A stretch of 63,558 bases of DNA, filler included, from Collodictyon triciliatum (GCA_043381765.1; 5 parts of 5 records of this genome joined end to end with filler, not necessarily neighbours in it), one strand, 5' to 3'. Counted from the whole stretch's first letter, positions 3,701-62,484 are shown. The notes: generated by a model from the letters alone, not told the origin. Translations and numbers: made by a program.

Positions 3701-6700
3701 TTTTCTTCTTTTCTTCTTTTCTTCTTTTATTTTTTATTATTTTTATTTTTATTTTTATTTTTATTTTTATTTTTATTTTTATTTTTATTTTTAATTCAGT
3801 TGCCGCCCACATGTTCCAATAGAAAAAGTCACGAAACCATTATTGTATCAAACCGATCTTTATTCTTGCAAGATGTTAGTCCTTACCTTTCTGTTTCCAT
3901 AAACCCAGTTGGTGCATTATATCACTACCGCCAAACGATGCTTCAGAGATATTTGTAAGTATTAGCCAAGAGCATGCGCTTATTATGCATACCATGTTAT
4001 CTACGAGCGTTTCATTTTAAAATATTTTATCATAGGTGCTAAGTCTCCAACCTCGTTTCTTTGATACGGAGAATCAAATCTGGGTATCTGATGACGACTA
4101 CTATTATCTCTATACAGCCTCTCATAGATGTAATGTACCTAAGACGTCTTCAAAAAATGCTGTTGTGTCCAAATACGATAAGGGACTAAAGCATATCATG
4201 GACTTCATGGTGGAAGTGCCTCCAGGGGTCGACTTGGAAAAGGATGCATGGCTTTTTCATTCAAGCCTTGATTTATTTTTGGTAGTTTCAAAAACATCAA
4301 GATTACTACTTGTATTTGAACCTAAAGTCTCTAAGAAATTTGAACCTCCACAAACCCAAGGTGTCATTCAAACAGTGCACGATGTTATAGGGCTAGTTAA
4401 GAAATCAGTTTTTTCGACAGAGAAAGATTCGCTGACAGCTAAAAAGGGATGGGTGATTCAGTCTGTTGATAAATTTTTAACGTCAGTATGTGAACTGATG
4501 GATACGTTGTGCGCCTCTATTTGGAACTACGGCGACGCAACACCTATATTCTCGCTTCTACTAGAATCTCTGCAGATGGTCAAGGATATCATGGAGATCA
4601 TTGCGCTGAAGAAATTAGCTCTTGAAACCTTACCCAAGCAGGACACATTTGCTAAAATTCATCAATTAATCTTGAATGTGCGCAAGAAAACACGAGCTTT
4701 TGGGGGGCAAGAAAACATTTTTTCATTTTCAGGGACATTTACCAGACTTTACCAGAGACTCGTGCACTTATTTTTCTCGATGTCCTTCATATTGTTTGAC
4801 AATTTTAATATTGAACTCGGAGTTCCTCAACTGTCGGATTTACTTTTTGAAGTTCTTGAAGACACGAATTTCGGACAATTTTTGAGTGTGATTGATAACA
4901 AGGAGTTTACTTACTATTCTTCAAGACTCATTAGATCTCACGAAAAAGAAGTCGTGCGTGTTTTAATCTCTAAAGAAATATCACAAAAACACCAATACCA
5001 AATGAACAGAATTATAGATGATTCTTTAAAATTTACTTTGAACGCCACCTCTTTATTGGCTCCTACTTCAAGCTCGGTATCACATTTGCACATGTATTTA
5101 TGCATGTGCAATACAATTGTTTTGCATATACTTCCGAAACTTAATGAACTTGAAAGTATGAATGTTTTAGTGGATGGTTACATGAGGAGACTGCAGTTCC
5201 TGGTGGAATTTATCTGCTCTAAATTGGTATCCAAAACTCATTTATTCGAAGATATATTCAGAAACCATGAATCAGACCTGGAAACATTTCTCCAGCTTCC
5301 AGCAATAATCAGGGATGCTGTAGCAGATCAATCATTTCGAACTCGTATTGTTAACTCATTCAAGGAACTTTATCAATCTGTGAGTAAAATCTATAATGAT
5401 TATATTAATTTTTAACCTAAGTAATGTTTAGTGATAATCAATTTGTGTATTTGGCAGATAACCAAATCCCTTTTCCGGTCAGACTCTGTCTTCGTTACTG
5501 AAGAAAAAATGACACTATTTCAAGATTTGTTCTGCTTGCCCTTGTTTTCATCTTTGTCATGGGTCTGGTTCTAAAAAAAAAAAATTCACATTAAATAATC
5601 TAAAAGGACAGTCTTTGAAGATGCAAACATTTATTTATTGCAAAATGATAAAGTTAGTGTAAAGCGCTCTTAATCCCGATTAAATTGTTTTATTTGCAAA
5701 AAACGTTGAATTATATAACATATTTTTAGGACTCTACTTACGATTCAGTACTGGTGTCTGATTCTGTAAATTGGATGATACCCGTTAACAACGAAACATG
5801 GAAGACAATAGTGGAAGAAAAATCAGAGGGGGACATATCCACCTTCGATAAATGGCTAATGAAGTGTCAGAAGCAAAAAGTTGAATCCTGGGTTGACCCC
5901 CAAAGTATTTTTATTTTCATTTTCAAAAAAAAAAAAATCTGATATTGAACGGATTGATTTACCCTTTTCTTTTAAAAAAAATAATAATGTTAACACTTAG
6001 CTTGGAGGTTGATGAAATGTATCATGGTGACAAAGGCCTATCTGAAGGGAGATTTGCCCCTTCTTAATGATTGCTATTCGATGATGAAGACAAAGTCCAA
6101 TGCAAAGGAATTCATGGAGCCATCAGAAGACTTGAAGTTTGCATGCCAAATTTCAGATCAGGTATGATGCGTTCAATATCACAGTCTTGATTTATAACGG
6201 TAACTGCTTTTCTAAGATGGAACAAATGACTTACTCTCCATGTCACACATCGGCACCCACACATACCCTTCTCTTTTCGACTATCCTGATAACCCCGCTC
6301 GATCATTTCTCTAGATGATATCTCTTCTCCGTGGAAATTCACAACAACTTCGATATCAGCAAGAAAATGGGTCAACTTAAATAACATGTTTTTATATTGA
6401 AAATGCTGCATAAGTGCTCCAGTCTTTATTCTTATTTTTAATTTTAATTTTAATTTTAATTTTAATTTTAATTTTATTTTGTGCCTAAGCCTCTTTGGAT
6501 TAAAAAAATTATGCAACCATATATCAGAGGTGAGAAGAAAGCTGAACAATATTTGAGGCAAGTCGAGCAAAAGTGTCGATTTATTATGACCCTTAGAAGA
6601 AAAGACCTGGAAGTAAGAAGCCCCGGAGCTGCTTCATCGGCACCCAAGAGTTTTTCTCATATTCTCAAGCGTAGCTCATCTTTATACGTCCATCCGTCAG

Positions 6701-9700
6701 GAGATCATAAGTGTATTGATTGCAAAATTTTCTATCTCTATCATCCGTTACAATATGTAGTTTCTGTATCAAAAGCGGTAATGCCTTATCCGCCCAAATA
6801 TATGAGATCATTGTCCATTCGATGCTCACTATATTGAAATTGTAGTTAAATCTTCGTTAAAGAAACAAAAATCAGACCAATTTAGTGAGCCAAGGGTAAT
6901 ATCTTTGTAATTAATGACTGTCTTATTAGGTGTGCCATAACAATTAATTCAATAACTTTAACATGTGCGAAACCTCTTTCATAGGCATCACAGCCAATTA
7001 GCTCAAATATCCATGAGGGACTTTACAACTTTTTGAGAAAAGATAGTGTAGATGCCGTGGATATTTTCAGATATCTTAGTCATACACAAAGGAGCTCTAT
7101 TGTTATGGAATATATTGTGTCTATGTTTTGTAAACTGTTGGAGCAGATAACTGGGCCAGACAAACAAGAACTATTGATTAGCTTTTCAAAGGGAATGCTC
7201 TTTGCGTTGTCCGAAACATCTACTATACTGGCAGTTCCAAAGTCAAGCCTGGTAAATATGTTGTTTTTATTAATAATAGAAATAATATGAGACCAAATAA
7301 CATTTTAATCCTTGGTTCTTTATACTGTTCGTAAAAGGAAAAAATATGTCAATTAGTTGCTGAAAATCTCTTTTTTTAAAAAAAAAACATATCAGGTTCA
7401 TTCGACTAAACTTGGTCTAGTTTTCAATTCCATGGAAAGAATAGTTTCACATATTATATCTGCCATCAAATCTGCTAATCATATGCATTCAGTGATAGCA
7501 ATATCTGTTGTTGTATACCTTCCTGTGCCTGAAGGAATATGGTCTGAAACAAATGTTGCTATGCAAACACTGCAGCAACTGGCCCTTGCATTTGAAGCTA
7601 ATGATACAGGAGACATCCACCTTCAGGACCAAAGAACAAAATTTTTCCTATTGGTTAAATGGCTTTTCAACTCGAATCATAAATCGATGATACTTGTTCA
7701 TCAATTTGTCACTAAAATTATTCAGAAGATTCTGAACAAGAAACAAATCATGCTGAAAGAGGTCAATTATGCAAAGTGGGCTGAAATATGCCATTCTAGT
7801 GAAAATATTATGACAATAAATGAAGCAGTTCAAGGAATTGATATCATCATAGGGCTCATACTCCACCTCTTTCCCTTGCCCACTGCCAGAAAGCATTTTC
7901 AAACACAAGACTTTATAAATGAACTTATCAGTATTGCATCAATGCTTATGCCACGAATTACTGAATCTTGCTGTGAGGTCTTGGGCTATGCTCTCGTTTC
8001 TGAAGACCTAAATAAATCTTCGGACTCATCTTTAAATTCGAGTGTAATAACTGCGTCCTTGGACTATTCTTCAATTTTTGAAGCCCTATTTGCTCTTCTG
8101 GAGACTTATGAGCGACACCCGATTTCTCCATTAGCATGTAAGATATTTATTCGATAATGGGTAACGTATTTGCTCGGTTATTATTGAATATAAATATATT
8201 CGTTTATTTTATTTTCGTAAGCACTTAATTATATTTTTTTAGTCGTATCCTTACCGAACATGAATCAAATGGCTTGTCCTTCTCCTTCAAGTGTATTTTC
8301 AATTCAAAAATCATCTATGCCGCCTCAACAACCTGCTTCATCACCACCATCGCAACCTACACCATTTTCATTTGGGAATGCTCGACCATCGGAACCTACA
8401 ACACCAACCCAATCTACTGCTACACCGCCATCGCAACCTTCACTATTCTCATTTGGGAATGCTCAACCATCAGCATCTTCAACGTCTGCTCAGCCTGCTA
8501 CTGGATTGCCGTCTCCAATTCCTTCATCATTTTCATTTGGGAATGCTCGACCATCAGTATCTTCAACACCAACCCAATCTACTGCTACACCACCATCGCA
8601 ACCTTCACTATTCTCATTTGGGAATGCTCGACCATCGGAACTTACAACATCTGCTCAATCTGCCACTGGATTGCCGTCTCCAATTCCTTCACCATTTTCA
8701 TTTGGGAATGCTCGGCCATCAGCATCTTCAACGTCTGCTCAACCTGCTACTGGATTACCGTCTCCAATTCCTTCATCATTTTCATTTGGGAATGCTCGAC
8801 CATCGGTATCTTCAACGTCTGCTCAATCTGCTACTGGGTTATCGTCTCCAATTCCTTCACCTTTTGGGAATGTTCGACCATCAGAACCTACAACACCAAC
8901 CCAATCTACTGCTACACCGCCATCGCAACCTTCACCATTCTCATTAGGGAATGCTCGACCATCGGAACTTACAACACCAACCCAATCTACTGCTACACCG
9001 CCATCGCAACCTTCACCATTCTCATTTGGGAATGCTCGACCATCGGAACCTACAACACCAACCCAATCTACTGCTACACCGCCATCGCAACCTTCACCAT
9101 TCTCATTTGGGAATGCTCGACCATCGGAACCTACAACACCAACTCAATCTACTGCTACACCACCATCGCAACCTTCACTATTCTCATTAGGGAATGCTCG
9201 ACCATCGGAACCTACAACATCTGCTCAATCTACTGCTACACCACCATCGCAACCTTCACTATTCTCATTAGGGAATGCTCGACCATCAGTATCCTCAACG
9301 TTTGCTCAATCTGCCACTGGATTGCCGTCTCCTATTCCTCAATTCTCCTTTGGAATTACGCCTTCAACGACTCAACCTCCGTTGAACGTCTCTTTGAGTA
9401 GCCAGGGCAAAAAGACGTCAAATCTCATTTTCACAGAAAGGCTAAATCCTGTTGAATATATATTAATGGAGAAAGGGACAACATTTATGACTAGAGATAC
9501 CATATCAGCAAATGAAATTGTAAGGATGAATGACTCTATTAGAAATCTCTTTCAAAAATTACTAATAGATGAGTCTTTTCAAATATTTTTTGAAAACACT
9601 ATGATGGAGAATTGTGAAAATATTAAAACTTGGATTAATGCAAGCACTCAGCAAGAACACAAATCAGGTTTTTCCTGTTTATCCGACATAACTAATATTT

Positions 9701-10191
9701 AAGAGCTATATTTACCATATGAATGCCATATTTGGGTCGAAATTTTGGTAAATAATTTTTATTCTTGGCGTTTTTTTCTCCTCTTCTGTATATATCATAG
9801 TCCATGGTGCGAAGGGGAAATGGGCTATCGTCAAGCAGCTAGTAATTTGGATAGGCTTGATATCTTTTAATCGAAAGCAATCAGGCTACCGAAAATCTCT
9901 GCGCTCCGTGGCTAAGTTGATCGGAATATACGGTTTTTTTTTATGTTTTTTTGTTTTTTATTTTTTTTGTTTTTTATTTTTTTTGTTTTTTATTTTTTTT
10001 GTTTTTTATTTTTTTTGTTTTTTATTTTTTTTGTTTTTTATTTTTTNNNNNNNNNNNNNNNNNNNNNNNNNNNNNNNNNNNNNNNNNNNNNNNNNNNNNN
10101 NNNNNNNNNNNNNNNNNNNNNNNNNNNNNNNNNNNNNNNNNNNNNNTTATTTTTATTTTTATTTTTATTTTTATTTTTATTTTTATTTTTA

Positions 10192-21195: not shown

Positions 21196-21286
21196 GAAGA
21201 GTATTTTGTCAAATACAAGATCGTGAAATAATAATAAAAATCCAACCGACTTACAGAAAATCGGGCAGAAGGAACCCGCCAGAAGA

Positions 21287-22780
21287 ATGGAAGCAAGCCC
21301 CCAGACACACACCCAGACATCCCAGTCTGACTTACACGAGGCCCACGAAAAGCAATGCGAGGAGCTCGCAGCTCCCTCAAATGACTCGACGCATAGAGCC
21401 CAGGAAGCAAAATACCGCCCCAAGAGTGATAGGGACAACCCAACGATAGGCTGGCTTTCTTGCCTTCGACTAGCTCTCAACATATGGCTCTCCGTGGCTC
21501 TCCGATCGGCCCCAAAGTTGTTCGTCATCGTTCTTTTTATGTGGATTTATTACATCCCTTCCAGAGTCATTACCCATGATTTACTAGACGCAATCAGACA
21601 TGTTTTTTATGAAGTCGTGAGAAATATCATTTCGCTGCTGGCTTTTTGTCTATCGATTATGCTGTGTTTTGTAGAGGTCTTTGGTTTTGGATTTTCGTTA
21701 GATGCGTTCAGATACTCATTTCTTCCCGCCCTTGTATTATCTCTCTTTATGTACGTGATATTCCTGGGTAAATCTTTCGTGTTCAACTTGGTCACAAACA
21801 CCATAGCGATGTTTGGAATTGTTGGTGGGCTCTATCTTGTTAGCAAAGCGAAGAGTCTGGCACACATGGACGAAGAAATGAAAGTATTTTTTCAACTGAC
21901 CAAGGATGGAACACCTATGGCAGTCTTGAAAGGTGTTGTTGGGCTATTTATTCTCGTTATTTTCCTATTGCAAAACATTTTTCCGATATATCTAGAATCT
22001 TCATTCTACAAACAGCTTGCCTTTCGCTTCCTGGTATTCCCGTTGTGCTTCGCAATATCCAAATGGTATCAGATATCAGTAATTTTCGGCTTGCCCAGAG
22101 AACATACCCGAAGAAGATTAATAATCAACAAAATATCTAATTACTATATGCACATAGTGAGTCGGCTATACCTTTCCAACTTGACTACAACTGGGTCAAA
22201 CTCTACAAGGTACATCCTCGTGAACTTTGCATCCGCCGTTTTTGAAGTTCTGTATGTGCTTACTGTAAAATTTCGATTAAGCCTGGTTTTTGAGATGAAA
22301 AGCGCCGTGCGTCGTCTACATAGCATGATATTTAAGTCCAGAACCAATAGGATAGTATCAATTGTACCTCTTGAAGAAAATTCAATTGAAAATCGCATGG
22401 CAACCGATGATGCACAGGAGGAGAAATGTTCTTTTATCAAAGAAGCAATCTCTTTGAATACGGGGCAGATATGTGATGATATTAGTTCTGAAATATACTC
22501 TATTTTTATTGCTCCGTTGGTTATGTACTTTCTCTTTGAGATATACCCTGATACGCCCTTTCAAACTATATCTAGTCTGCATGATTGCTTCAATCAGATA
22601 TTCATCCAGCTGATTTTTGAGTTTCTTGGTGATACGATATCCTTAATTCTTCAAATCCGTCAGGGCCACATTCAAAACAAACTCATATCAGATTGGATTC
22701 CTATCAACAACTATCTTTTGGTGTCATTTTCGATTTTTTGCATTCTCTACACGCACCGCATTGTAACCTTGTTTTCTTAG
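21287..22780 (+). CDS. Intronless multi-pass membrane protein of unknown function (497 aa)
   Basis: Uninterrupted 1.5-kb ATG-to-stop ORF with roughly 9-10 hydrophobic stretches; no family motif recognised. Confidence 0.8.
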   Translation: MEASPQTHTQTSQSDLHEAHEKQCEELAAPSNDSTHRAQEAKYRPKSDRDNPTIGWLSCLRLALNIWLSVALRSAPKLFVIVLFMWIYYIPSRVITHDLLDAIRHVFYEVVRNIISLLAFCLSIMLCFVEVFGFGFSLDAFRYSFLPALVLSLFMYVIFLGKSFVFNLVTNTIAMFGIVGGLYLVSKAKSLAHMDEEMKVFFQLTKDGTPMAVLKGVVGLFILVIFLLQNIFPIYLESSFYKQLAFRFLVFPLCFAISKWYQISVIFGLPREHTRRRLIINKISNYYMHIVSRLYLSNLTTTGSNSTRYILVNFASAVFEVLYVLTVKFRLSLVFEMKSAVRRLHSMIFKSRTNRIVSIVPLEENSIENRMATDDAQEEKCSFIKEAISLNTGQICDDISSEIYSIFIAPLVMYFLFEIYPDTPFQTISSLHDCFNQIFIQLIFEFLGDTISLILQIRQGHIQNKLISDWIPINNYLLVSFSIFCILYTHRIVTLFS

Positions 22781-26562: not shown

Positions 26563-28785
26563 TTATTCGTGTTTGGCTCCTGCATGGTCAGCAGAGGATG
26601 AAGCTGCGGCTTCGGCTTGCTTCTGTTTCTGAAGAATCGAGGACGCAGATGACAACTGCGATTGTTTCTTCCACACACGCACCTTGGACTTAATCATCAC
26701 CTATGCAATCGATCAACCCAGTTAGCATAGTTCGATTCGGTGGGGACAGATGAGGTGTTTCTCTATAAATAGACGTAGTATCGCAATAGAAACAAGGAGA
26801 AATTAAGCGCGTTTGTCCCAGGGCAGATGAAGAAGAGGAGAGGAGAGAAGAGAAGAGAAGAGAAGAGAAGAGAAGAGAAGAGAAGAGAAGAGAAGAGAAG
26901 AGAAGAGAAGAGAAGAGAAGAGAAGAGAAGAGAAGAGAAGAGAAGAGAATTTACCATGCGATACACCTGTGTGGACAAATCAGTAATAGCAGAGTTGATT
27001 TCATCCTCGGAGGCATTGACAATATCGTGGACGTCTTGAGACATCGGCTCGGCTCCGTTGTTTGTAAGGAACGGGTGTTTCTATACAACATAGTCAGCAA
27101 AATATAGGAGGTTTCAATAACAGATATTGCTGCTTTATTCAATATAGAATGATAGAATATATGACTCGGAAGGTAAATACTCGAAAGGAGAGAAAAAGAA
27201 CGTCCGCTTTATCAGAATCAACTGAACACATCGTGTCTGTAGTATAAAATAAGAGACTATTCTTTCAAAGACTGAAACCTTCATCTCGGCGATGGTAATG
27301 CGAGTGTCGGGATTCTTGTCTAGCATACGATTGAGAAGATCTTTGAGGGTTTCTGGGATAGGACCAGGGAAGGTAACTGCGTCGTTCTTGATGGATTCCA
27401 TCAGCGATATCTGAGTGGCGCCTGTGAACGGTAGCTTAGCAAAAACAAAGCAAAAGAACGTCACGCCGAGAGCCCACACATCGACAGGCGGGCCGCGGTA
27501 TTCTCCACCGGCACAGATTTCGGGAGAGTAGAATAGAGGTGTTCCAGCGGTTTTTCGAATTAGCTGGTCACCGTCACTGTGCATCTGCGACACTCCAAAG
27601 TCTCCGAATTTGATAATTCCACCAGAAACCATGATATTTTCTGGCTTGATGTCACGATGGATGACTCCCTGTTGATGCACTATGAGGGGGACGGGGTGGA
27701 GAGCAGGCAAGAATCAGTCACATCTCATCATCATAAAAAATTAATACATTTGGGCCGAAACATGAAAGGTTTAGAGGACTTGATAATCGTCCAAAAAAAG
27801 AAAAGGGGAATTAACAAAATATGAGCTCGAATTTAGCCAGTTCGATTCAAATATTGATACATTCAGACTCACAGTATTCTAGACCAAGCACAGACTGACG
27901 CGCATATTTGTAGGTGGTTTCCATCGGCAGTGGCGTCAAATCCTCCTTTGTGATGTCCATTGTGATTCCATCTGTGGCGTACTCAAAAACTATCATAGAA
28001 TATGATACGAAAAAGGTTTTTTAAAAAAGGGAACCATGTCGGATAGGTGATATTGAATTATTATTTCAGCCTTTTCTCTTGCTTTCAGTAACCGAATAAA
28101 TCAATAATGACCCCAATAGTTCAATATTACTTGTGGGGTCGAGTAGATTCACCAAACTCTCATTTGAATTAAGTGCTTAGTAAGAAAAAAAAATGCGGTG
28201 AGGGTGGCAAAATCATGAACGTACTCATGTAGAGCTTGTCCTCGTTGGGGTCGTCCATGACTTCAAAAAGGCGGATGGCGTTTGGATGGCTCAGTTTCTT
28301 CTGGATGGCGATTTCCCGCAGAATGTTCTGCATGGGATCGTCCTTTGCGAAACGAGAGCGCTTTTTGAGGACTGATTTGTTGCAGATCTTCATTGCGTAG
28401 TAAGCACCCGTGCTTGCATGGCGGCAGCGTTTGACTTTGCCGTATGCGCCTTTGCCAAGTGTTGCTTCCACAATGTACTCGTTCACCTTCTTCTCTCCAG
28501 ACTCGGAGTTTGTTTTGCTGATCTTGTTGGTCTCATGGAATTCTTCCGCTTCATTTGTTCACATATATAGGAAGGAAGATAGTGCGTATTCATATGTTTA
28601 ATGCCACTGTTGAGAACATAACCCTCTGGGCAAGTCAGAAACTAAACGCGGTGTCCTGTGTGATTCGTATGTCAAGGTATTCCAAAATAGTCCCGAATAA
28701 GCCAAAGAAGAAAAAAGAAAGAAAAGAAAGAAAGAAAAGAAAGAAAAGAGAAAGAAGAGAAAGAAAAGAAATTGCTACCTGACAT
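26563..28785 (-). CDS. CaMKK-family (CAMKK/GRIK/Sak1-like) Ser/Thr kinase
   Basis: [124 protein letters not shown]; tail [17 protein letters not shown] resembles the CaMKK autoinhibitory/CaM-binding segment. Start codon inferred from a 7-nt first coding exon. Confidence 0.85.
26846..26948. repeat. (AGAAG)n intronic microsatellite
   Basis: Read directly. Confidence 0.95.
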
Positions 28786-48953: not shown

Positions 48954-49397
48954 TTACTTTTTTTTTCTTTCTTTCTTATTTCTTTTGATGCTGCCTTTTT
49001 CTCTCTTTCTCTCGCAATCGCGCATCCAAAAGGGAATCAAAGTCAGAACCCAAACAAAGTCCAAGGAGATCGACTCACAAACTCTCCGTCGATAATTACA
49101 CATAGCCATAAACACACAAATAGCGAGAGATAAAAGAGAAGAAAGGAAGTATTTCAAACTGAGAAGCGTGAGATGAGTCAACTTCAGAGATTTGTAGTAA
49201 TAATTTTTTTTTAATTCTTGAAAAGCTGCTGCATCTTGAGCTTAATTAAGAGAATAACCAAAGAGAACTAAATAAATTCGGACGCGTGCTTCTGTATTCG
49301 TGGTAATAATAATAATACTTATTACTATCACCGTTCATTCTCGTTCTCTTTTTCTCTTAAAGTTAGACCCTCATATCATCTCTACCCCGTCCCAACT

Positions 49398-51913
49398 TTA
49401 CCAATCGCCATCGCTTTCTTCTGAGCCCTCTGAAGCATCTTCGAGCATGTGATTGCGTCTTTCGATTAAAGCCTGGATTTATGCGTGTAAGTGGTGGAAG
49501 AGTCAGAGCCAGCAGAGAAATTGGGTGAATAGTATCAAATAACTAAGGCTTCTATTATAATTTTTTTGAAAAATAAACAAATAAAATAGAATCTTGTCGT
49601 GTTATTTACTATATATTTTATAGTTAATAACACGATAATGCTGAAAAAACTGATGTAAATAAATGAAAATCAATGTAGAAGAAGGGATTTGGGCTTATAA
49701 AATGAAGATAATAGTATAGAAAATGCTGTGTCTGTTAGTAGAAGTTGAACTACCTTGGCAATGATCGACAAAGCCTTTTTGTCCTCCAGTAAAGCACCCG
49801 CAGCCTTTTTGTTTCTCTCATCATCCGTCTAACACAAAAAAAAATGTTGGTTCGGCTCAACGTCAGATGAACCCCTCCTTTTTTTTTTTTTTTTAATATT
49901 CGGTTTATATATCATCTTATTAATTGGACATACGTGAAATGAAATCATATAAAACGTACGACATGACGAAGCTTTCTCTCACCGCGAATTGCGGCTAACA
50001 GCATATCACGTGTGCCTTTGAATTAGATTTCAAAGAAAAACAAGCAAATATAAAATAGTTGTGTTAATAATAAAGTAGATTTAACGATGAACAAAAAAAA
50101 AGTTAAGGTAGAAAAAAAAAGGCAAATTAAAGGCAAAGTCACTGGAAGAAGATTCTGTTGTCGAGTCGAGCAAGCTTGAAGTCGAATCAATAGTATCGCC
50201 CAATTGCGATGTTGAAGACGATGCAGATAACTTTGTGACCAACGGGGCGGTGGGACGAAAAATTGGTGGTGGGGGCGGTGGGGGCGGTGGGGGCGATGGC
50301 AATGATGGAAATGATGGTACTGATAAAACAGTAGCAAATGTGTCTGTGTTGTCCGCGGGCGAACTGATGGATTCGTTGATGGTTTGCATCCCATTCATCG
50401 ACAATCCAAGTGGTACAGACTCAAACACATGTGCTGTTGAGGATGCATGTCGAAGAGCTTCTTTGACTTTGGCCAATTCAGCTTTGGATAAGTCGGCTTC
50501 CCGCAGGGCTCTTGCATAATCGTTTCGTGCCAATTGAAGAGCTTCAAGCGATTCCCGAAGACGGGCATCAGTTCCTTCGCTATGGTGTGTCGGTGGGATA
50601 GTTGCAAAGGTGTATTTAGGGCTTTGTTCACACCAACGGATTTTTTAACGTGGAAAAAAGAAATATTGAAGACTGCATACCCTCAAACGCATTTTTATAA
50701 TAAAACAAAACAATATAATGTAAAATAGAAGTAAATAAATGGAAAATAAATCATCGTCACTTGATTATGAAATAATAAAATCAAGGAAAATTAGAATATC
50801 ATTTCAGAACCGTCGCTGAAGTTCTCCTTTCAGAGTTGCAACTTCCTTTTGTAAATCATGAACTGCAATATTTTGTCCCTTTTCATGTTCCATGGATTGT
50901 TGTTTTACGTGGGACAATTGTTTGGTTAATTCTGAGATTGATTGATTGGCCAACGATAGCTTCTCTTCGAGCATACTGCAGTTTTGATTAGCGTCACCAA
51001 GCCTCTAAATATTTATAGGCATAATAACACATATTGGCTAAATGAGCGTCTTATATTGAGAGGAAAAAATGTGATGGAAAAAAGAGCGAAATGTTCAAAA
51101 AAATATCAAAAAAATTCAACAAACTTTTTTAAGGTCGGATATTTCAATCTCGTTCTTTTGTTGAATTTGCTGATTAGAGGAAGCTGTATGTTCGAAAAGC
51201 TGGAGAGTAATATTTAATTAGCAATTACTGTTTTCTTGTTCAATATTTTTCTTATTCTAGAATCGTATAAAATTCTGGCTAATAGTCACAGCTATATGGC
51301 ATTACTTTTTTTTTTAAAAAAAAAAAACCAGGAAAATCGATGATAAGAATATTATAATAACTGTTTAGATAAATATTCCATCACAAACTTCTTTAAGGGA
51401 GCGCTTTTCATCCTCTGATTGCCGTAAAGATGCTTCAAGTTTCTGGCTCTTTGATTCAAGTGCTGATTTTGCATGGCTTTCAGTTTCAAGTAATTGTTGC
51501 ATTCTTTGTTTTTCTTTCTCAAAATCCAATTTGAGAGACTACATGTCAAGAAAACAAAAGAGAATGGCGGGATATGAGAACAAATGCATGTGAAGTTCTT
51601 TTCTCTAATCATGGGTATGCTATAGTGGATAAATGTGTTATAAATAATGCGATCATAATATAAATATATATATATCGATATCAAAATTACTTCAACACCA
51701 CTACCGAGTGTCACACTTTCAGCTTTGCGAGCCTTATCTTCAGCACGAAGCTCAGACAATTGTGTTTCCAGTATGAAAATGCGATTTTCAAGGTCAACTT
51801 TTGCAGCAGATGCTTGGTCTATGTGTTGATTTGCCGCATCCAGTTGAGATGATAGATTAGCTGTACGTTGTTCTGAGAGCTGGAGCTGCTTTGTAAAATT
51901 TTCTTGCATCTGT

Positions 51914-51992
<79 letters not shown>

Positions 51993-52012
51993 AAACAACA
52001 ACNNNNNNNNNN

Positions 52013-52100
<88 letters not shown>

Positions 52101-53997
52101 GCAAAGTATTAATAGAAAGTAGTACATATGGTAGTAATGACGATAACTTTAAGGGCATATTTGGCCTACCTGTTTAATTTTTGAGTTAAAAGATTCCTCA
52201 GCATCAGCAAACTGTCTCTGTGATTGCGATGCTGTTGTTGATGCATTTGCCAATTTATTTCTGGCTTCTACATCAGACTTTTGTGATACTTTCAGCTGTG
52301 CATCCAACTCATCAACTCTGGCATTTGATGCTGCAACGAGTTTCTCTGTTTCTTGCAGTTTTTTCTTCAATGCAGATATTTCACTCTGTAGTCTGTCCTC
52401 TAAGCTTTTGGCTTTTTCCTTTTCATTCTGTAAATGAGCTTTGAATATTTTTTCCATTTCTGCGATGCGGGACGTTTCTGTCAAAGGGCTACCCGCGAGT
52501 GCAGAGGAATGTGTTGTTGTAACAGGAGAAAGCGGAGCCGTGCTGATTCTTCTGGGTTTTGTGCCGACAGGAACAGGGGGTGGAGTCGACGCGGAAGACG
52601 ATGCCGGCTGAGGCAATGGTCCAGTATTGGTTGTAGGATCTATGGCTTTTATATTGTGTACAGATGCAAACTGTTGCGCTTTTGATAAAGGAGCCATATT
52701 TTGGGTTGTATCTAGAGGCTTAGCAGTCTCAAGGGGTGGTGCCTTTCCAGTTGTCGATGGATGCGTGGAAATAGCCTCTTTCTTAGGAAGACGATTGCTC
52801 TTTCCTCGCTCTCTGCGGGTTGACACCCTGTGGTATTTTTCAGGAATCGGTTTGCCTAAGAACGCGCACATAAGCAGCTCTCGCTCATCCTCACGGACAC
52901 CCCCAGAAACCCCAAGTTCTGCCAGACACTCATCGATCTTTCTCATCAAACTGGAAAAGTCACTTGGCATCCCTTTGTCCTGCAGGGGAATGTAAGTTGG
53001 GCGAATATATATTAAGAGAGAATGCTGAGAGAATATATAAAACCAGAATGAAAGATACAGCGCATTTCAATATTCAGATATCAGAGTTTTTCAGTGACTT
53101 ACGGATTGCTGATCGTATCGGTAATTGAATGAACCATCTTTATCCCAACCCATATGTCCAGTATGTTTCACATCCACAGGCCCAGATATTTCAATTTCGT
53201 CAGTTTCCTTCAGAAATTAATCCAATCTTCTTAATTATTGAAACCAGTATTATGTCATCTAGAATGCTATCTTTTTTACAAAATGACAATCAGGACAGGA
53301 AAACAAATACAAAAAAAAAAAGTACCTTTTCAGGAGAAAGAAATCCGGGGAAGAACGAATTGACAAACCCTTTGAAAATCCTAGAATTTGAAATAGGCAC
53401 AATTAAAGGGAACCCATCTTCAAAGGTTCACAATGATTGATTAAATAAAATAAAACCACAAAAAATCACAGTAATGCTGCCATTACGAATCAGTGGCTGC
53501 TGGTGTTGGAGGTTGTGATACAGTTGTGTTTAACTTTCCTTCGCTGTTGTTTTTTAAATAAAAAAAACGGAAATTAAATTATTAGCATTAACCCACAGAT
53601 AGAGAAACACCTATCAATTATAATTTCATCTATTTTTTTTTTAATAGAAAACCCGCCTATATTTGGAATCATTAAAAAAAACTACCTTTTGGGGGTTTGG
53701 CTTCTGTACCACGTAAAGAGAGATTAAACAAAACAAAAAAAAATCATTAAGTGTATAATTTGAATTAAATGATTACAGAATTTATGAATTTTTTTTTTAT
53801 TCTTCCTTTCAACTTTTGTGCAGGACCGAGGGGGGAAATACAGAATTTATGAATTTATATTCTTACAATAAATTATCCACAGACGGGCCTATTTTGGTAG
53901 ATTGATATTTAGTATTTCTTTGTTGTTGTTGCTGCGGTGGAACTTGGGTGGTGTTCAAGCTAGCTTTTCTTTGCTGTTGTTGCTGTTGCTGCTGTTC

Positions 53998-54092
<95 letters not shown>

Positions 54093-54690
54093 GATGTTGA
54101 TGTTGATGTTGATGTTGATGTTGATGTTGATGTTGATGTTGATGTTGATGTTGATGATGCGATGACACTTGTGAGGTATTCATGCGAGTATTTCTTTGAT
54201 GTTGTTGCTGCTGCTGACTGCTGGCGCTGGGCTGCTGTGCATGCACGGTGCTCAAGGAAGACTTTGCTGCGTGCTGGGCTGCTTGTGAGCTCGCTGGCGT
54301 GGGTTTGGCAACCGCCTGGGTGGGCTTTGGTACAGTTGCATGAACGGGACTTTTCTGACCGGTCGCTGTGGACACCGAAGAGCTGGGCGGTCCAACGCGG
54401 GGAGAGGAACACGCTTGCTGGGGCACGTCTTTGCTCTGTGGAGGCGACGAAGCAGGCGCTTTTGTGAGGCTCGGGACTTGGCTTGGGATTTCATTTGCAG
54501 ACGAGTATTGGGGGACCGGCGCTTCGTGGTTGTGAAGACATTCGGAACACTTTGTTGGGTTGAACGGGCTGCAAGAGAGGGTCGAGTTTACTCATATGAG
54601 TTGTATGTATGCCTGCGTGTATGTGTGCATGTGTATTTGAGAAAGGGACTTCGGAATCAAGTTGGCGCAGTTGCAGGTGCGACACTTCAT
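49398..54690 (-). CDS. WASP-family Arp2/3 nucleation-promoting factor lacking WH1: Cys/His motif, HQ/polyQ, CRIB/GBD, long coiled coil, polyproline, WH2-C-A
   Basis: CRIB exon 53103-53207 EISGPVDVKHTGHMGWD; P10 tract near 50265-50294; WH2 exon 49960-50015 TRDMLLAAIRGERKLRHV; C-A LSIIAK|ALIERRNHMLEDASEGSEESDGDW*; phases consistent at the junctions checked. Confidence 0.88.
53792..53838 (-). mobile_element. Short poly(A) retro-insertion, family A, intronic
   Basis: Minus strand ...tcctgcacaaaagttgaaaggaagaat-A(n) between perfect 18-bp direct repeats tacagaatttatgaattt (53774-53791, 53839-53856). Confidence 0.8.
53975..54158 (-). repeat. Coding (CAA)n and (CATCAA)n repeats: polyQ and (HQ)n
   Basis: In frame in ORF 53863-54426. 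Confidence 0.9.
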
Positions 54691-54762
54691 CGGTAGCTTT
54701 GGCTTGATCGCTCCCAGCGAGAGGTGAATAGACTCTATTTGTAATGGTATTGTCTGAATGAA

Positions 54763-54856
<94 letters not shown>

Positions 54857-54956
54857 NNNNNNNNNNNNNNNNNNNNNNNNNNNNNNNNNNNNNNNNNNNN
54901 TTAATTAATTAANNNNNNNNNNNNNNNNNNNNNNNNNNNNNNNNNNNNNNNNNNNN
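54857..54956. other. Artificial scaffold linker
   Basis: N44-TTAATTAATTAA-N44. Confidence 0.97.
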
Positions 54957-55310
54957 AAAGAAAAAAAGAAAAAAAGAAAAAAAGAAAAAAAGAAAAAAAG
55001 AAAAAAAGAAAAAAAGAAAAAAAGAAAAAAAGAAAAAAAGAAAAAAAGGAAAAAAGAAAAAAGAAAAAAGTTTGGCTCTCCAGCTGACCGCTGATTTTCC
55101 CCTCATTTTACTCTTGTGTTTATCTTTCTCTGTTGATACAGTTTCCCACTCCTTGTGGGCTTTACCCTCTTGCGCTTTGAAACGATTAAAGTTAAAAAAA
55201 AAAAGGAAGATATATTTCACCGTTAATATATGCTCAGCTTCGTCCAAAAGTCCATTTCTAACACTTTTAGTGGGCTATTCTTTTTGCCCTTCACAGCAAT
55301 ACTCTGGGGG

Positions 55311-58300
55311 ATGGACACAGACCCACTCGATCAAACATTCTACCAACATCTCCACGAAGTCGAGCAATTGTATCAGGATTTCCCCAAACAGGTTCGACAA
55401 TATCTCTTGCCGAAGACTCCGCGTGGCAAATCCTTTCCTTCTTTTTTTTTTTTGGATGCCTTCTAGTTGATTATCTCTCCCCCGTCCAATGAAGCCGATC
55501 AGCAACACATGTACTCTTTACTTTCTGAAACGCTCTTGGTTAATGGTGCATAATCGTCGAAACATGTAGGAGAAAATACGAGTAGAGGCTTGGGTTAATA
55601 AATTATGTGAAGTGTGTCCATTGCCATCATGGAAGCGCAATCGGTCTTTTTAATTTTTTTTATAGCGCCATTATACAATAATAGTTTTTGTTTACTCTTC
55701 ACTCTATCTGAATTGAATTGAATTGAAGTTGGATTTGTGATGCAGATTCATTCCATATTTCGAACGCTCTCACGCAGCTTCTTTATTCCAATATTGTTCG
55801 TCTATCCCTTTGATTTATTCTCTATTCAACAGGAATCGATATAGCCAGATCTTATTACACATGGTGAGGAAGAGAAGATTAGAACCCCCTTTAGACAAAA
55901 GACCCCCTCTTGATGACCTTAAAGTTCTTCCGAGTTGGCAGGTTTTCGATTTAAACACTTCACCATAAACATCCTCACAAATATGATTGTACAAGTGGGA
56001 TTATTTATATTCTACTTTCTCTTGATTGAAAGGTTTCAACTATACCCGAACCCAAAAATCCAAAGTCTCTTCGCTACGACCAAAAAGATTCCTTTCAATC
56101 TCATTCGAGGTCGAAATCGCCCAAATACGTATGACATTACATATCGCTTCATCATATACTCCACCCCTTTTAAAGATATCAATTTTTATTGCACTTGAAC
56201 TCTTTATGGTATTACAAACTAATTTCCTTTGTTGTTTTTATTTTTTTTTTTATTTTGCTGATTTGTTGGTTGCAGGAAGTGCGCTTCGATAGTGAACTAG
56301 ATACCGAACCGGCTTTTTTATCCCACTCAAAGTTTGTTTCGAATCACGTCAATCAATCAAGACAATCATCTACTAATTATGATTTAGGTTCATATCATAT
56401 TATATCATATCATATCATATCATATCATATCATATCATATCATATCATATCATATCATATCATATCATATCATATCATATCATATCATATCATATCATAT
56501 NNNNNNNNNNNNNNNNNNNNNNNNNNNNNNNNNNNNNNNNNNNNNNNNNNNNNNNNNNNNNNNNNNNNNNNNNNNNNNNNNNNNNNNNNNNNNNNNNNNN
56601 CATATCATATCATATCATATCATATCATATCATATCATATCATATCATATCATATCATATCATATCATATCATATCATATCATATCATATCATATCATAT
56701 TTTTACAAAAAGCAAGATACACAAATAAATAATCACTTAAGGTGCAGCGATGAAATCCAGTATCCGGGAAACGCATCAACAGCCCTCAGTAATTACCAAT
56801 CACCAAATTAAAGAGGACACATTTTATTTCTTTGAATTTTTTTTTATTTCTAGATAAACATTCACCCCGATGAAAAAAAAACAATAGCTCTCCCTTTCTT
56901 CCCATCGTGGCATCAGCCCATTCCAGAGGATAGGCGAAGAACCTCAGCTATTGGTACCTGACTAAAAGTTAAATTAAGAAGCCTCTTTTAATATCCTATT
57001 GAAAGGATGGCCAAGTATAATGATATATACATGTACCATATTTGTCCCCTTAGTCTACACTGAATTACACTATTGTTCTTCTGATTTAAAGATGTTCACA
57101 AGACCCACATCTCCTTCACCAGGACTTGCTCACGAGAAGGTAGATTTCCGCATCACGATTGAATGCACATATTACATTAAATTGTTGAATAGATACGCTC
57201 ATTGAGTGGGTTACTTCATCGAAAGCATTCAACAATTCACTAGTCTCAGAAAAACAAACACGAGAATTTCGAAAAGGATATCGCACAAATACATCAACAC
57301 TATGGACACGAGGTTTATACTACATTTGTTGTTTTAAAACTTCTATGTTATCTTATACAAATAAGCCAGATATTCTCAGTTAATTCTATATTTAATTTGT
57401 TGAATCCTTAAAGAATAATGAGTGATATGAATTTCATTCTCGATTTTCATACATTTCTACTTACAAAAGGATTATACTTGTGAATATAAGTATATAATTG
57501 CTACTATACACTAGATCAAGCTACTGAGGCAGCAACTCCAAGACCTCGACCAATCCTATACATCTGTTTGTTTCAATTGAATTCTTGACTCATGCTCTCT
57601 CTTATATTCTTTTTTTCCCGTGTAATATATATATATATATATATCCTGATATCTTTTCATGAATTGCGAATGATTTAGCTAAATTACAGGAAATAAGGCA
57701 GCGTGAGGTTCATTACAAGAAAGAACTACAGAGACTTGAAAATGACTTTCAAAATGAAGCACAGAGTTACAGAGACCAAACAAAAATATTGCGAAGCCAA
57801 GTAGAAGCACTTACCACACGACTTCAGCAACTTGAATCCCAAAAAATAAATGAGCTTATGGATAGGAAGCAAAAGGCGAGTCTTTCAATTTTTTTTGATA
57901 TTCCCTCGATGTATTTGTGACATTATTAAATAAATTTTGAACAACAAGCAAACAAAAAAGCAAACAAAAAAGCAAACAAAAAAGCAAACAAAAAAGCAAA
58001 CAAAAAAGCAAACAAAAAAGCAAACAAAAAAGCAAACAAAAAAGCACAAAACAATAGGTACATCAAGGGCAGGAAAAAATTGACATTCTTCAAAGGGAAC
58101 TTCACTCTTCTCAAGTGAGCCATGCCGAACAACACCAACGAATTTTTTCATTGGAAGCCGAAGTAGAAAACCTAAAGAAAGAGCTTGAGGAAAAAACTGT
58201 AAACATCGACCCTTCCTACGCCAATCAGGCTGAAGCCACGAAAAAGAGGCTCCAGAAGGAAATCGACATATTAAAAGAAGAGCTGGACCAAATGTCACAA

Positions 58301-59644
58301 AGAAACGCATCATTGGAATCTGCAAAGACATCTTTACAGGCAGAGGTAGATAGATTGAACAAAGTGAACTTGAATCTCTCAAAGAATATGATCGAATTGT
58401 CGGAGAAAATTGAAGCTCTTCAGGACGCACCTGAGCAGAACCAAGACATGATTGTAGAGTCGATGCAAAAGGAAAACAAGAGGCTAACGAGTCAAATTCA
58501 TTCCTTGGAAGCGACGGTGGAGTCATGGAAAATGAAATACGAGATGGAAAAAAAAGACGGACCTCCACAGCGAAAGGGTGATTCTGAAGAACAGCGCCAC
58601 TCATCTAAATTCTCTAGAGAACACGAGGATAGGACAAAGTCCACACGATTGGAGTCCAGCATCACACAATTCAGAAAATCTCAACTTGAATCCGACTCAA
58701 GAGATATAGAAAAATCGTACTCTGGCCATGAAAGCTTCTTATCGAAATTGAGAATTTCCAATCCAGCATCTTTGGAGTCATCCCAAAATAGCACTGAGCA
58801 TATCTTCAAAGTTTTTTTTTTATTCCTCACGATTTGATGACCATACTTTTTTCCCCTTCATTCGATTCATTTGATGGCCTTACTTATATTTCTCCCTGTT
58901 TTGACTGCACATACAAGAAATCCTATTGATGCAATAAGTATTAGTAATATTGTATGTGATTTGTCAATTTTTTCCTTCACTTACCAGGGGAGAAACTCTA
59001 CCCTTGGGGAGGCGAAAGAGGACTCTGCCGAAGGTCGAAAGCAGTCACCAAACTCACTGACGACTATCGGCAGGGACGTTAGTGGATTGAGCAAAGCAGA
59101 TGAGCTGTCTAATTCTCGCATATCTACGCGGGTGAATTTTTTTTTTTTTTTTTTTTACACGCCGCCACTTCGCAAAAAACTGTGACCGCCCGCGTGATTG
59201 TTTACCTCACTCATTCATCTCCCCTTCTCTTTTCACTTTTGGTCTCTTCGAAGGATTTTCAGATACAAAACTTTTACATCGAATGGTTATGTTTATTTCA
59301 CCTTTTGACCTTCAAAACAGAGATTCATCGAGCCTATATCTGAGTCTACCTTCGGAAGTGAAGGTGTCACCGATTTCCCAGCCACACAAAAACGCGCTGC
59401 TGCTCGGGGTACGGATGCACCAGAGCCTGAAGAGTCAGGCTTGGGTTCTTATGCATCTCTTGTAAGTTCAGCATATTATCCAGCGAATATCTGCCCCGTA
59501 TAGATTTTTGCAAGAATGCCACAGACTAAATTCGATTCAATCAACCAACTAACCGCATAACAGCACGGCCAGTCGAGGGTCAGAGGCAGCACGGAGAGAA
59601 ACTCAGGGCTGAAAAGCTTTTATTCATGGGGAGAGGCAGAGTAG
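55311..59644 (+). CDS. CEP112/CCDC46-like protein: N-terminal DUF4485 plus long coiled coils
   Basis: MDTDPLDQTFYQHLHEVEQLYQDFPKQ|EKIRVEAWVNKLCE..SWKRNR|NRYSQILLHMV..RLEPPLDKRPP..LKVLPSW fits the DUF4485 pattern (W..KL, RNxY..LL, PF..PP..L..LP). Heptad-rich exons 57690-57850 and 58115-58810. Last exon ends YSWGEAE*. Confidence 0.7.
56391..56700. repeat. (CATAT)n intronic microsatellite spanning a gap
   Basis: Read directly. Confidence 0.95.
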
Positions 59645-60249: not shown

Positions 60250-62484
60250 ATTTTTGCTCCCTCTTTTGCTCATTCATGGTCGTTGGTCATATCTCCGCAT
60301 CAGTCAAATTGTTCGCTATTGCTTTTACAAGAATATTTGCTTCACTTTATCTCATTTATGGTTTTCGATCTTTACTGGATTCTCTGGACAGGTTAGTCTT
60401 TTGATATATTTGTCGAGTATACGGAAACAGCATCTTTTGTCGCACTTTTCGTGTTATTCTTCAAGATAAAATGCAAGTGTGCTTCACTAGACACTATTGG
60501 ACAGCTTCTACATTGCTGTATTCAACGTATTTTTCACTTCTCTGCCGATTATGGGCCTTGCCATTTTTGACCGTGATGTTCCAAAAAGAGCGATGCAGGC
60601 GTACCCGCAACTCTATACATACCGACAGCAGGCAGAAAGGGTATATACTTAGATGAATATATTAGTCTATTGAAGAATAATGTCCGAATTCTCCACGTTG
60701 CTCTAGACTTTTCTTCCTTTATTTTATTTTAAAAATAAATATAAAAAAACCACCAGACGGAACCTAAGAATTTTTTGGAGCATCTAAGATTTTGTATTGA
60801 ATAGTTTGACATGAGGAGCTTCTGGGTTTGGATATTGGACGGATTTATTCACTCGCTGGTACGTATCTGATCCTATTTTATGCAACTAACCAAGGCACAT
60901 AACCAGCTGACCCTTTGTATGAGAGATAATCAAGGCCATCTTTCAATATGATAATATGTTCCAGCAATATAATCTTGTTTAAACTGACGTCGACGGGTAG
61001 TGAGAAGCTCAAACTCATAATATTGCAACAGATATGTTTCTTCTTTCCATACTTGGTTTTTGTTAATCATGTGTCTTCGCTGGAAGATGGGACTGGTGGA
61101 GGTGATAGTTTATGGGCGCTAGGAACAACCTCCTATACATGTATCATTCTAATGGTTAACCTTAAGGTTTCGTTTATGACAAGGTAAGTGTAACCCTGTG
61201 GAATATTTTGCGAACAAGATTATCACAACCTATATATTTAATTGGAAAATATACGGGTTTGGCTAATTACCCAACTGAATTTTCTTTATGTAATCAGCAT
61301 TAATGTGAAGAGGATTGTTATAATGTTATTAGTACATGGACATTCTGGAATTGGTTCTTTACTGTCGGTAGCGTTGTCATATGGTTCATCTTCCTCGTAA
61401 TATACCATTCCATAAACGTCGTATCGATAGCAGAGGTCTATGGAATCTTTTTCAATCTTGCTGCGATGCCCGCTTTTTGGCTGACCATCTTTGCTGTTCC
61501 ACTACTTGGATGCATGGTTGACTTTGCTATTACAAGGTTACAATAAGATAGGGTCATCCCCCCCCCCCCCCCCGAAAAAAAAAAAAGGGAATTATCACTC
61601 TTTTTTTTTTTCAAATTTTATTTTTCTTTTTAATTCCTTTNNNNNNNNNNNNNNNNNNNNNNNNNNNNNNNNNNNNNNNNNNNNNNNNNNNNNNNNNNNN
61701 NNNNNNNNNNNNNNNNNNNNNNNNNNNNNNNNNNNNNNNNGATAAAAGAACAAAAAAAAACACAAAAAAAAAAATAAAAAAAAATGTGATTTTTATGTTT
61801 GTGTTATAAAAAAAAAAGGGGCCCCCCCCCCCCCCCCCCTAGGAAAAGAAGACATGAGCATTATTACTCTTTTTTTTTTTCAAATTTTCATTTTCTTCTA
61901 GAGTCCCTAAAATGAATTCAAATACATCATTACAGAAAAAAGCGCATATTTTTCTTAACAGTGAAAATCTAAAAAAATTATCTAACTTTTAATCGTGTCC
62001 CAATAATCATTTAGTGGGCGTGAATATATCCAACCCTCTTGCACTACGATTATCCGAGAGAGAGTATATATCGAAAGGGCCAGAAAAAAGAGTAGAGATT
62101 TTGTTCCAGACAACGTAGTGACGCACATCTCTTCGAATTCTCATGACGTACAGATGCGCGACCTAATCGCAGCGGAGCCTCATCATGGTGTGTATCACCA
62201 CGCTCATTTTTTTTATTTTTATGTATTCCAGTATGAAAATAATTATTTATGCCATATAATCGCTCATAAAAATATGTCAAAATCTCCTATTAAAATAAAA
62301 TATTCGGTGGTTGTCTGGGAGGCTACTACTTTGAATCGTATTGAGGTATGAATCATTACAACTAGATGATCAACGCCCAAGCGGCTCAGGAAGGTCTGGC
62401 TCCCCAAGGAGTAAACAGGTGGACCCTGTGAACCAGAGTAACGCGATTTATGGAGGCAACGACACTGCTTGGAAGGTTAGCTAA
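60250..62484 (+). CDS. P4-ATPase phospholipid flippase (Drs2/ATP8/ALA-like), C-terminal membrane region; 5' part absent
   Basis: [95 protein letters not shown]. End of gene approximate. Confidence 0.9.

Follow-up and report, generated by a model that had tools for sequence, protein, structure and literature searches.

What kind of actin regulator is encoded on the minus strand between positions 54690 and 49398 of the stretch of Collodictyon triciliatum DNA analysed here (GCA_043381765.1; parts of five records joined end to end with filler, 63,558 nucleotides (nt) in all, called the window below)? An earlier note, made from the sequence alone, had read the locus as a WASP-family protein without a WH1 domain that carries a long coiled coil between its CRIB motif and its C-terminal VCA region, and had suggested that the full domain combination might be undescribed. 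The family assignment holds and the limits given for the gene proved exact. The suggested novelty does not hold, since the 2012 study by Kollmar and colleagues already describes the same architecture in social amoebae as type II WAWH, of which the Collodictyon protein is, by its motifs and their order, a divergent further member. We put at roughly 85% the probability that it is a type II WAWH nucleation-promoting factor, the counterpart of dictyostelid WAWH_A, acting as a Rac-gated and constitutively dimeric activator of the Arp2/3 complex. The gene itself is intact and expressed.

The window is eukaryotic, with a GC content of about 35% and numerous microsatellites and N gaps. The gene runs from the ATG at 54690 to the TAA at 49398 and consists of 15 exons bounded throughout by GT-AG splice sites, which together form a single open frame of 1022 codons; the 14 introns measure 81–281 nt and their phases are compatible. 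As the earlier note had remarked, the protein can be seen only once small exons have been spliced in. Three such exons (exon 3, 53703-53686, a micro-exon of 18 nt; exon 4, 53543-53487, 57 nt; exon 5, 53380-53326, 55 nt) separate the exon with polyQ from that with the CRIB and were placed there because of a phase problem and because a transcript contig pointed to this region. A methionine at about 54182 was also considered as the start and was rejected, as a contig joint puts the ATG at 54690 in frame.

Evidence for splicing comes from public sequencing runs that were searched with 49398-53560; four of these (X1–X4, kept as contigs) were compared with 49300-54860. X1 and X4 belong to one study, bear different organism labels and had only been guessed to be RNA; their contigs skip GT..AG introns and therefore derive from spliced RNA. 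X4 differs from the gene at 5 positions in 386 nt. Eight of the 14 introns are crossed by joints with exactly the predicted borders, seven of them in X1 (49472/49754, 49828/49960, 50015/50143, 50579/50811, 51004/51125, 51199/51389 and 51538/51691) and one in X4 (54568/54650). Three further introns have weaker evidence: neighbouring pieces of X1 record 2 span the one between exons 7 and 8, and the two that flank the micro-exon depend on a single X1 contig of 194 nt that extends over only 27 letters on one side, X1 record 3 having 12 extra letters between 53867 and 53549 that match the micro-exon. Exon 4 was defined by its splice sites and phase, and X1 record 3 covers part of it. The exon structure that the earlier note wished to see confirmed by RNA was thus borne out for most introns, leaving three without contig evidence. 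One X1 contig spans exon 7 to exon 12, and another runs from exon 12 into the 3' untranslated region (UTR), as far as 49332. X2 comes from a second study, of a freshwater metatranscriptome, and its cover is confined to 52519-52839, inside exon 7, where X1 adds 52170-52292; X4 covers 54183-54568 within exon 2. No X3 contig aligned to the compared interval, and contig cover was missing for the CRIB exon, for the part of exon 1 upstream of 54679 and, in X1, for most of exon 7, which is no evidence of absence. An exact DNA search of metagenome contigs with a 32-nt piece of the CRIB exon, aimed at a cDNA spanning exons 5-7, gave no matches.

Intron 2 carries an observation of its own. At 53774-53861 an element of about 45 nt is followed, in the minus-strand reading, by a poly(A) run, and the whole is flanked by a direct repeat of 18–23 nt (53774-53796 and 53839-53861, 91% identical). 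It resembles the tail of a 5'-truncated retroposon with its target-site duplication, and it recurs in many X1, X2 and X4 contigs with a summed depth of up to 1358, loose-ended on both sides.

The N-terminal half of the protein begins with a feature that the earlier note did not mention. Residues 3-28 form a Cys/His module of the pattern C-x2-C-x-C-x12-C-x2-C-x-H-x-H, interrupted by the first intron: exon 1 (54690-54650, 41 nt) holds the start codon and the first half of the module (MKCRTCNC..., with CRTC at residues 3-6), and exon 2 (54568-53867) opens with the second half (CSECLHNH, with CSEC at residues 21-24). The intervening intron (54649-54569, 81 nt, GT..AG) is the one crossed by the X4 contig, which continues for 30 letters beyond it on the upstream flank. 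The rest of exon 2 is of low complexity, first a region rich in Ser, Pro, Gln and Ala (residues 27-145: S 18%, P 14%, Q 14%, A 13%) and then HQ repeats and polyQ (residues 146-235, Q 63%); heptad power in the two regions (z 1.7 and -1.3) indicates no periodicity.

Exon 5 encodes a hydrophobic, amphipathic motif just ahead of the CRIB, and its joints were not seen in the contigs. The 30 residues that precede the CRIB contain two K+R against five D+E, so that there is no basic region ahead of it. The CRIB itself lies in exon 6 (53207-53103), at 53192-53142, and reads EISGPVDVKHTGHMGWD; it matches the Pfam PBD family (PF00786) with an E-value of 9.1e-6 and 26.3 bits, above the cutoff of 21.3, although the match spans only positions 1-21 of the 59 of the profile because an intron splits the domain. 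The motif ends in HMGWD, the WASP-like GWD that had been noticed before, and the best sequence matches of the exon in the PDB are WASP (1cee_B, E 0.037) and N-WASP (8s5t_A, E 0.066), with PAK behind at 0.74. Exon 7 (52979-52170), of 270 residues, contains the post-CRIB segment, called WAID here, at 52970-52851, then a linker rich in Pro, Thr and Ser (52850-52491) and the start of the coiled coil. Predicted alone with AlphaFold2 (AF2), exon 7 shows three short helices in the WAID segment (residues 7-21, 30-41 and 47-52 of the exon) with predicted local distance difference test (pLDDT) values of 72-81, followed by about 110 residues of low confidence and a single long helix (residues 168-269, pLDDT 94-98).

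This helix is the beginning of a coiled coil of about 365 residues (residues ~490-855), which runs from 52490 to 50441 through exons 7-12 and whose limits differ little from the 52450-50450 first given for it. Exons 8-12, which carry most of it, lie at 51909-51691, 51538-51389, 51199-51125, 51004-50811 and 50579-50143. Its heptad power (z 5.8) was reached by none of 500 shuffled sequences. Two copies of residues 160-270 of exon 7 were folded together alongside three controls, and the homodimer model scored 0.61 (0.60-0.61 over three runs) as compared with 0.01 for the best of the controls. The runs agree in at least 95% of their contacts, with partner pLDDT values of at least 85; contacts join residue i to residue i at a spacing of 3-4, indicating a parallel, in-register coiled coil in the model. 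Of 30 proteins whose solved structures are pairs of one chain, 21 attain the score mark used, as compared with none of 23 solved as single chains; for eukaryotic proteins the figures are 17 of 29 and none of 30, and there only one of the seven without an older solved relative passed. As coiled coils resemble many solved structures, passing the mark should be read as likeness to a dimeric coiled coil and not as measured binding. The model agrees with the dimeric state that had been proposed as possible, and an in-register dimer is consistent with the idea that type II WAWH has dimerisation of the VCA as an inherent property.

The C-terminal elements listed by the earlier note are all present on the minus strand. 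A polyproline region in exon 12 (50314-50246), read directly, includes a run of ten prolines at residues 905-914. Exon 13 (50015-49960) contains the single WH2 motif (50013-49960), exon 14 (49828-49754) a spacer and the first half of the C (connector) helix, and exon 15 (49472-49398) the end of that helix with ALIERR, the acidic tail (49445-49401) and the stop codon; X1 joints were found on both sides of exons 13 and 14. The last 15 residues hold seven D+E, and the final residue is W. Its LLAAIR agrees, in the WH2, with the first six positions of the pattern given in the study that defined WAWH (PMC3298513).

That study (Kollmar, Lbik and Enge, 2012; PMC3298513) introduced WAWH for 'WASP without WH1', and its alignment WAWH.fas includes five rows of a dictyostelid type II: Dictyostelium discoideum (DdWAWH_A), D. 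fasciculatum, D. purpureum, Polysphondylium pallidum and Acytostelium subglobosum. These five rows likewise lack WH1 and are colinear with the Collodictyon protein from the first cysteine to the terminal tryptophan. The Cys module begins within the first 3-9 residues in all of them (from MxxC... to MTNQSNC...), as here; the Cys/His spacing is identical and the NP-F-x-P core is common, with CSICLHNH in the dictyostelid rows and CSECLHNH in Collodictyon. A Ser-rich region follows the Cys motifs in both, less dominated by Ser here than in Dictyostelium and then continued by polyQ, and neither has a basic region. Both CRIBs start with EISGP, the dictyostelid version being EISGPTDYKHNTHIG, and the WAID segment is equal in length and can be aligned by eye without a gap. 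A linker of Ser, Thr and Pro (and Asn) then leads to the coiled coil (~365 residues here and ~400 there), the polyproline region and one WH2, after which the C helix contains ALIDRR in all five rows and ALIERR here, and the acidic tail contains W in both. Thus the possibility that an identical architecture might already exist among described WAWH proteins, which would remove the novelty, is realised in five dictyostelid proteins. There are also differences: the Collodictyon protein has the long HQ/polyQ insertion, its CRIB ends in HMGWD (as in WASP and type I) where the type II rows have HIGI, its WH2 ends in LRHV where they have LKKV, its W is the very last residue where theirs is followed by DD, its gene has 14 introns, and similarity is very low outside the motifs, in the linkers and the coiled coil.

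The other rows compared in the same alignment (type I, Entamoeba, Acanthamoeba and Thecamonas) are devoid of both the Cys module and the ALI(D/E)RR wording of the C helix. WAWH type I, for example DdWAWH_B, is likewise WH1-less with GBD and WCA, but in the rows compared it retains a short basic N-terminus and has neither Cys module nor long coiled coil. The N-terminal Cys/His module is the hallmark of the type II subtype. According to a 2021 review, Dictyostelium WASP-B and WASP-C (wasB/wasC) possess a GBD and a WCA domain, and both are found at clathrin puncta; the GBD of WASP-B binds active Rac1B, RacA, RacB and RacC, wasB-null cells show defects of polarity and chemotaxis, and WasC affects adhesion and phagocytosis (PMC8305917). 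These proteins too are WH1-less. Compared with canonical WASP and N-WASP, the Collodictyon protein shares the CRIB, the post-CRIB helices, the polyproline region, the order of the VCA and presumably the autoinhibition released by a GTPase; unlike them, it lacks both WH1 and the basic region and has in its middle a long coiled coil that is predicted to dimerise.

Several results weigh against the assignment to type II WAWH. The comparison with the published rows was made by eye. Exon 7 found no homologue in any collection searched: among longer proteins none of 8000 scored candidates qualified, a full HMMER search over 1.84 billion representatives gave nothing at E<=0.001, the best ESM Atlas score was 0.86, below the lead level of 0.9, and 390 pattern matches in metagenome contigs yielded no confirmed case. 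A phmmer search of the PDB with the WAID segment gave no match, the best being a chance nucleoporin (E 1.7). The WH2 falls below the Pfam cutoff (15.7 bits against 23.1, E 0.012, obtained with a 23-residue piece that included five intron-derived residues), and its LRHV departs at one position from the family pattern L-[KR]-[KR]-[VTA]; in its favour, this weak match stands directly before the C helix and the acidic tail with its W. No contig of X1–X4 supports the introns 4/5, 5/6 and 6/7, which lie to either side of the CRIB exon. Finally, no in-frame stop separates the ATG at 54690 from an (ATT)n microsatellite and N gap farther upstream (gaps 54735-54950), which leaves room for an extension of the frame in that direction.

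Part of this evidence would suit the idea that CRIB, coiled coil and VCA came together by convergence or in an unrelated protein, for instance one similar to WHAMM or JMY or the product of an independent domain shuffle, so that the gene would be no orthologue of type II WAWH; exon 7 without a database homologue and the low similarity outside the motifs count in its favour. WHAMM and JMY do share with the Collodictyon protein a long central coiled coil followed by a polyproline region and WCA. They have N-terminal domains of their own, however, are not known to carry a CRIB and have two or three WH2 motifs, whereas the protein studied here has a CRIB and a single WH2, and no WHAMM/JMY family appeared among the Pfam matches of the nine exon translations at E<=1. 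The Cys/His spacing and ALI(D/E)RR, which among the published rows compared are specific to type II, also speak for common descent, and we regard convergence as unlikely.

Somewhat less probable still is that the gene encodes a canonical WASP and that the assembly gaps at 54735-54950, or the sequence beyond them, conceal its WH1 exons. The open frame already mentioned would permit this, and the sequence alone thus leaves the WH1 question unclosed; additionally, the X4 contig stops 30 letters past the upstream edge of intron 1 and so does not define the start of the transcript. On the other hand, WH1 (PF00568) was absent from the Pfam matches of the nine exon translations at E<=1. Of 40 minus-strand stop-to-stop open reading frames (ORFs) in 54601-57700, three that translate microsatellites or N runs were left out, and the other 37 gave no WH1 match at E<=10, a scan limited by the HMMER filters, which discard most matches above ~0.1. 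There is no basic region before the CRIB, and a plus-strand gene starts near 57663, which leaves about 3 kb for the missing exons. Most of the work against an upstream WH1 is done by the comparison with the type II rows, all five of which begin with the Cys module close to the first residue.

The model might also have fused two genes, one for a CRIB protein and one for a separate coiled-coil/VCA protein, in keeping with the lack of any contig joining exons 4-7 and with the patchy X1 cover of exon 7. This is very improbable, as the uninterrupted 270 codons of exon 7 encode the helices that follow the CRIB together with the initial 100 residues of the coiled coil, the two X1 contigs described above lead from exon 7 to exon 12 and from there to the 3' UTR, and the published alignment shows this order within a single polypeptide in five species. 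Least probable of all is an expressed but decaying pseudogene, for which the long polyQ/HQ expansion and the off-consensus WH2 might be cited: there is no frame break in the 1022 codons and 15 exons, all splice sites are canonical, two runs of a single study, which bear two organism labels and diverge by about 1%, contain spliced transcripts, and these preserve the ORF wherever they cover it.

With the type II WAWH assignment, a mechanism can be proposed in which GTPase binding, autoinhibition, Arp2/3 activation, zinc binding and targeting are all taken over by analogy with the family. At rest, the WAID helices would hold the C helix, and a GTP-bound GTPase of the Rac type would free it by binding to the CRIB. 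The WH2 would supply actin in monomeric form; binding and activation of the Arp2/3 complex would fall to the C helix and to the acidic tail, which ends in Trp. The long coiled coil may pair two chains in parallel and so bring two VCA tails to one Arp2/3 complex; dimeric VCAs are reportedly much more potent, a finding ascribed to Padrick et al. The proline run could recruit profilin-actin or SH3 proteins, and the Cys/His module, probably a small zinc-binding knuckle, may stand in for WH1 as the targeting element.

The surroundings of the gene are varied. The divergent plus-strand gene at 57663-58837 encodes a coiled-coil protein with only weak Pfam matches of the leucine-zipper type, and the ~3 kb that separate it from the WAWH gene are non-coding, with several microsatellites and N gaps. 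N runs occur at 51915-52100, 54735-55060, 56400-56700 and elsewhere, inside long microsatellites, among them (GTT)n, poly-T, (ATT)n, (AAAGAAAAG)n and one whose 15-nt unit translates as ISYHI, which indicates that the assembly breaks at simple repeats and that the gap sizes are probably placeholders. Farther away on the minus strand, a CaMKK-like protein kinase is represented by two exons at 27135-28558 (Pfam Pkinase, E 4e-31 and 2.7e-15). A search with the kinase exon gave 193 proteins at E<=1e-10 of 1256 candidates, the best being a EukProt transcriptome protein with 83% identity; named dictyostelids stand at ranks 6, 16 and 23 (50%, 43% and 40%) among euglenid, fungal and oomycete matches. 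Taken with the type II hallmark, these matches would by themselves hint at an amoebozoan source, and the density of introns and the GC content at one outside the dictyostelids. The plus strand carries the C-terminal exons of a phospholipid-translocating P4-ATPase at 60491-61543 (Pfam PhoLip_ATPase_C, E 1e-14 and 4.7e-10), a Kelch-repeat ORF at 2864-3295 (Pfam Kelch families, best E 7.2e-16) and a 493-residue ORF at 8221-9702 with about 14 copies of a 30-40-residue unit around FSFGNARPS and TPPSQPS, which resembles an FG-repeat nucleoporin. Two further plus-strand ORFs of 459 and 517 residues (4036-5415 and 21227-22780) match no Pfam family, and the former had no homologue among proteins of 805-2295 residues. 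Rfam and tRNA scans of the window found no RNA genes.

For the field as a whole the finding is of little import, since the architecture was named and drawn in 2012 and Dictyostelium members have been studied genetically. What it adds is a spliced, RNA-supported model, with its micro-exon of 18 nt, of a gene likely to be fragmented by automatic pipelines and for whose largest exon no relative was found in two very large protein collections. A sequence as divergent as this one also makes apparent which parts of type II are conserved, namely the Cys/His spacing, the EISGP of the CRIB, the length of the WAID segment and ALI(D/E)RR; that the Cys/His spacing is conserved in such a member points to the N-terminal module as probably important for function. 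The gene is rich in introns, the GC content of the window is 35% and the named relatives of the neighbouring kinase are 40-50% identical, and on these grounds it can tentatively be suggested, at appreciably less than even odds, that this would be the first type II WAWH outside the dictyostelids and that the Cys/His module and the dimerising coiled coil belong to an old, conserved amoebozoan design. If that were true, a constitutively dimeric activator of Arp2/3, gated by Rac, would have a small zinc-binding module in place of WH1 for its targeting.

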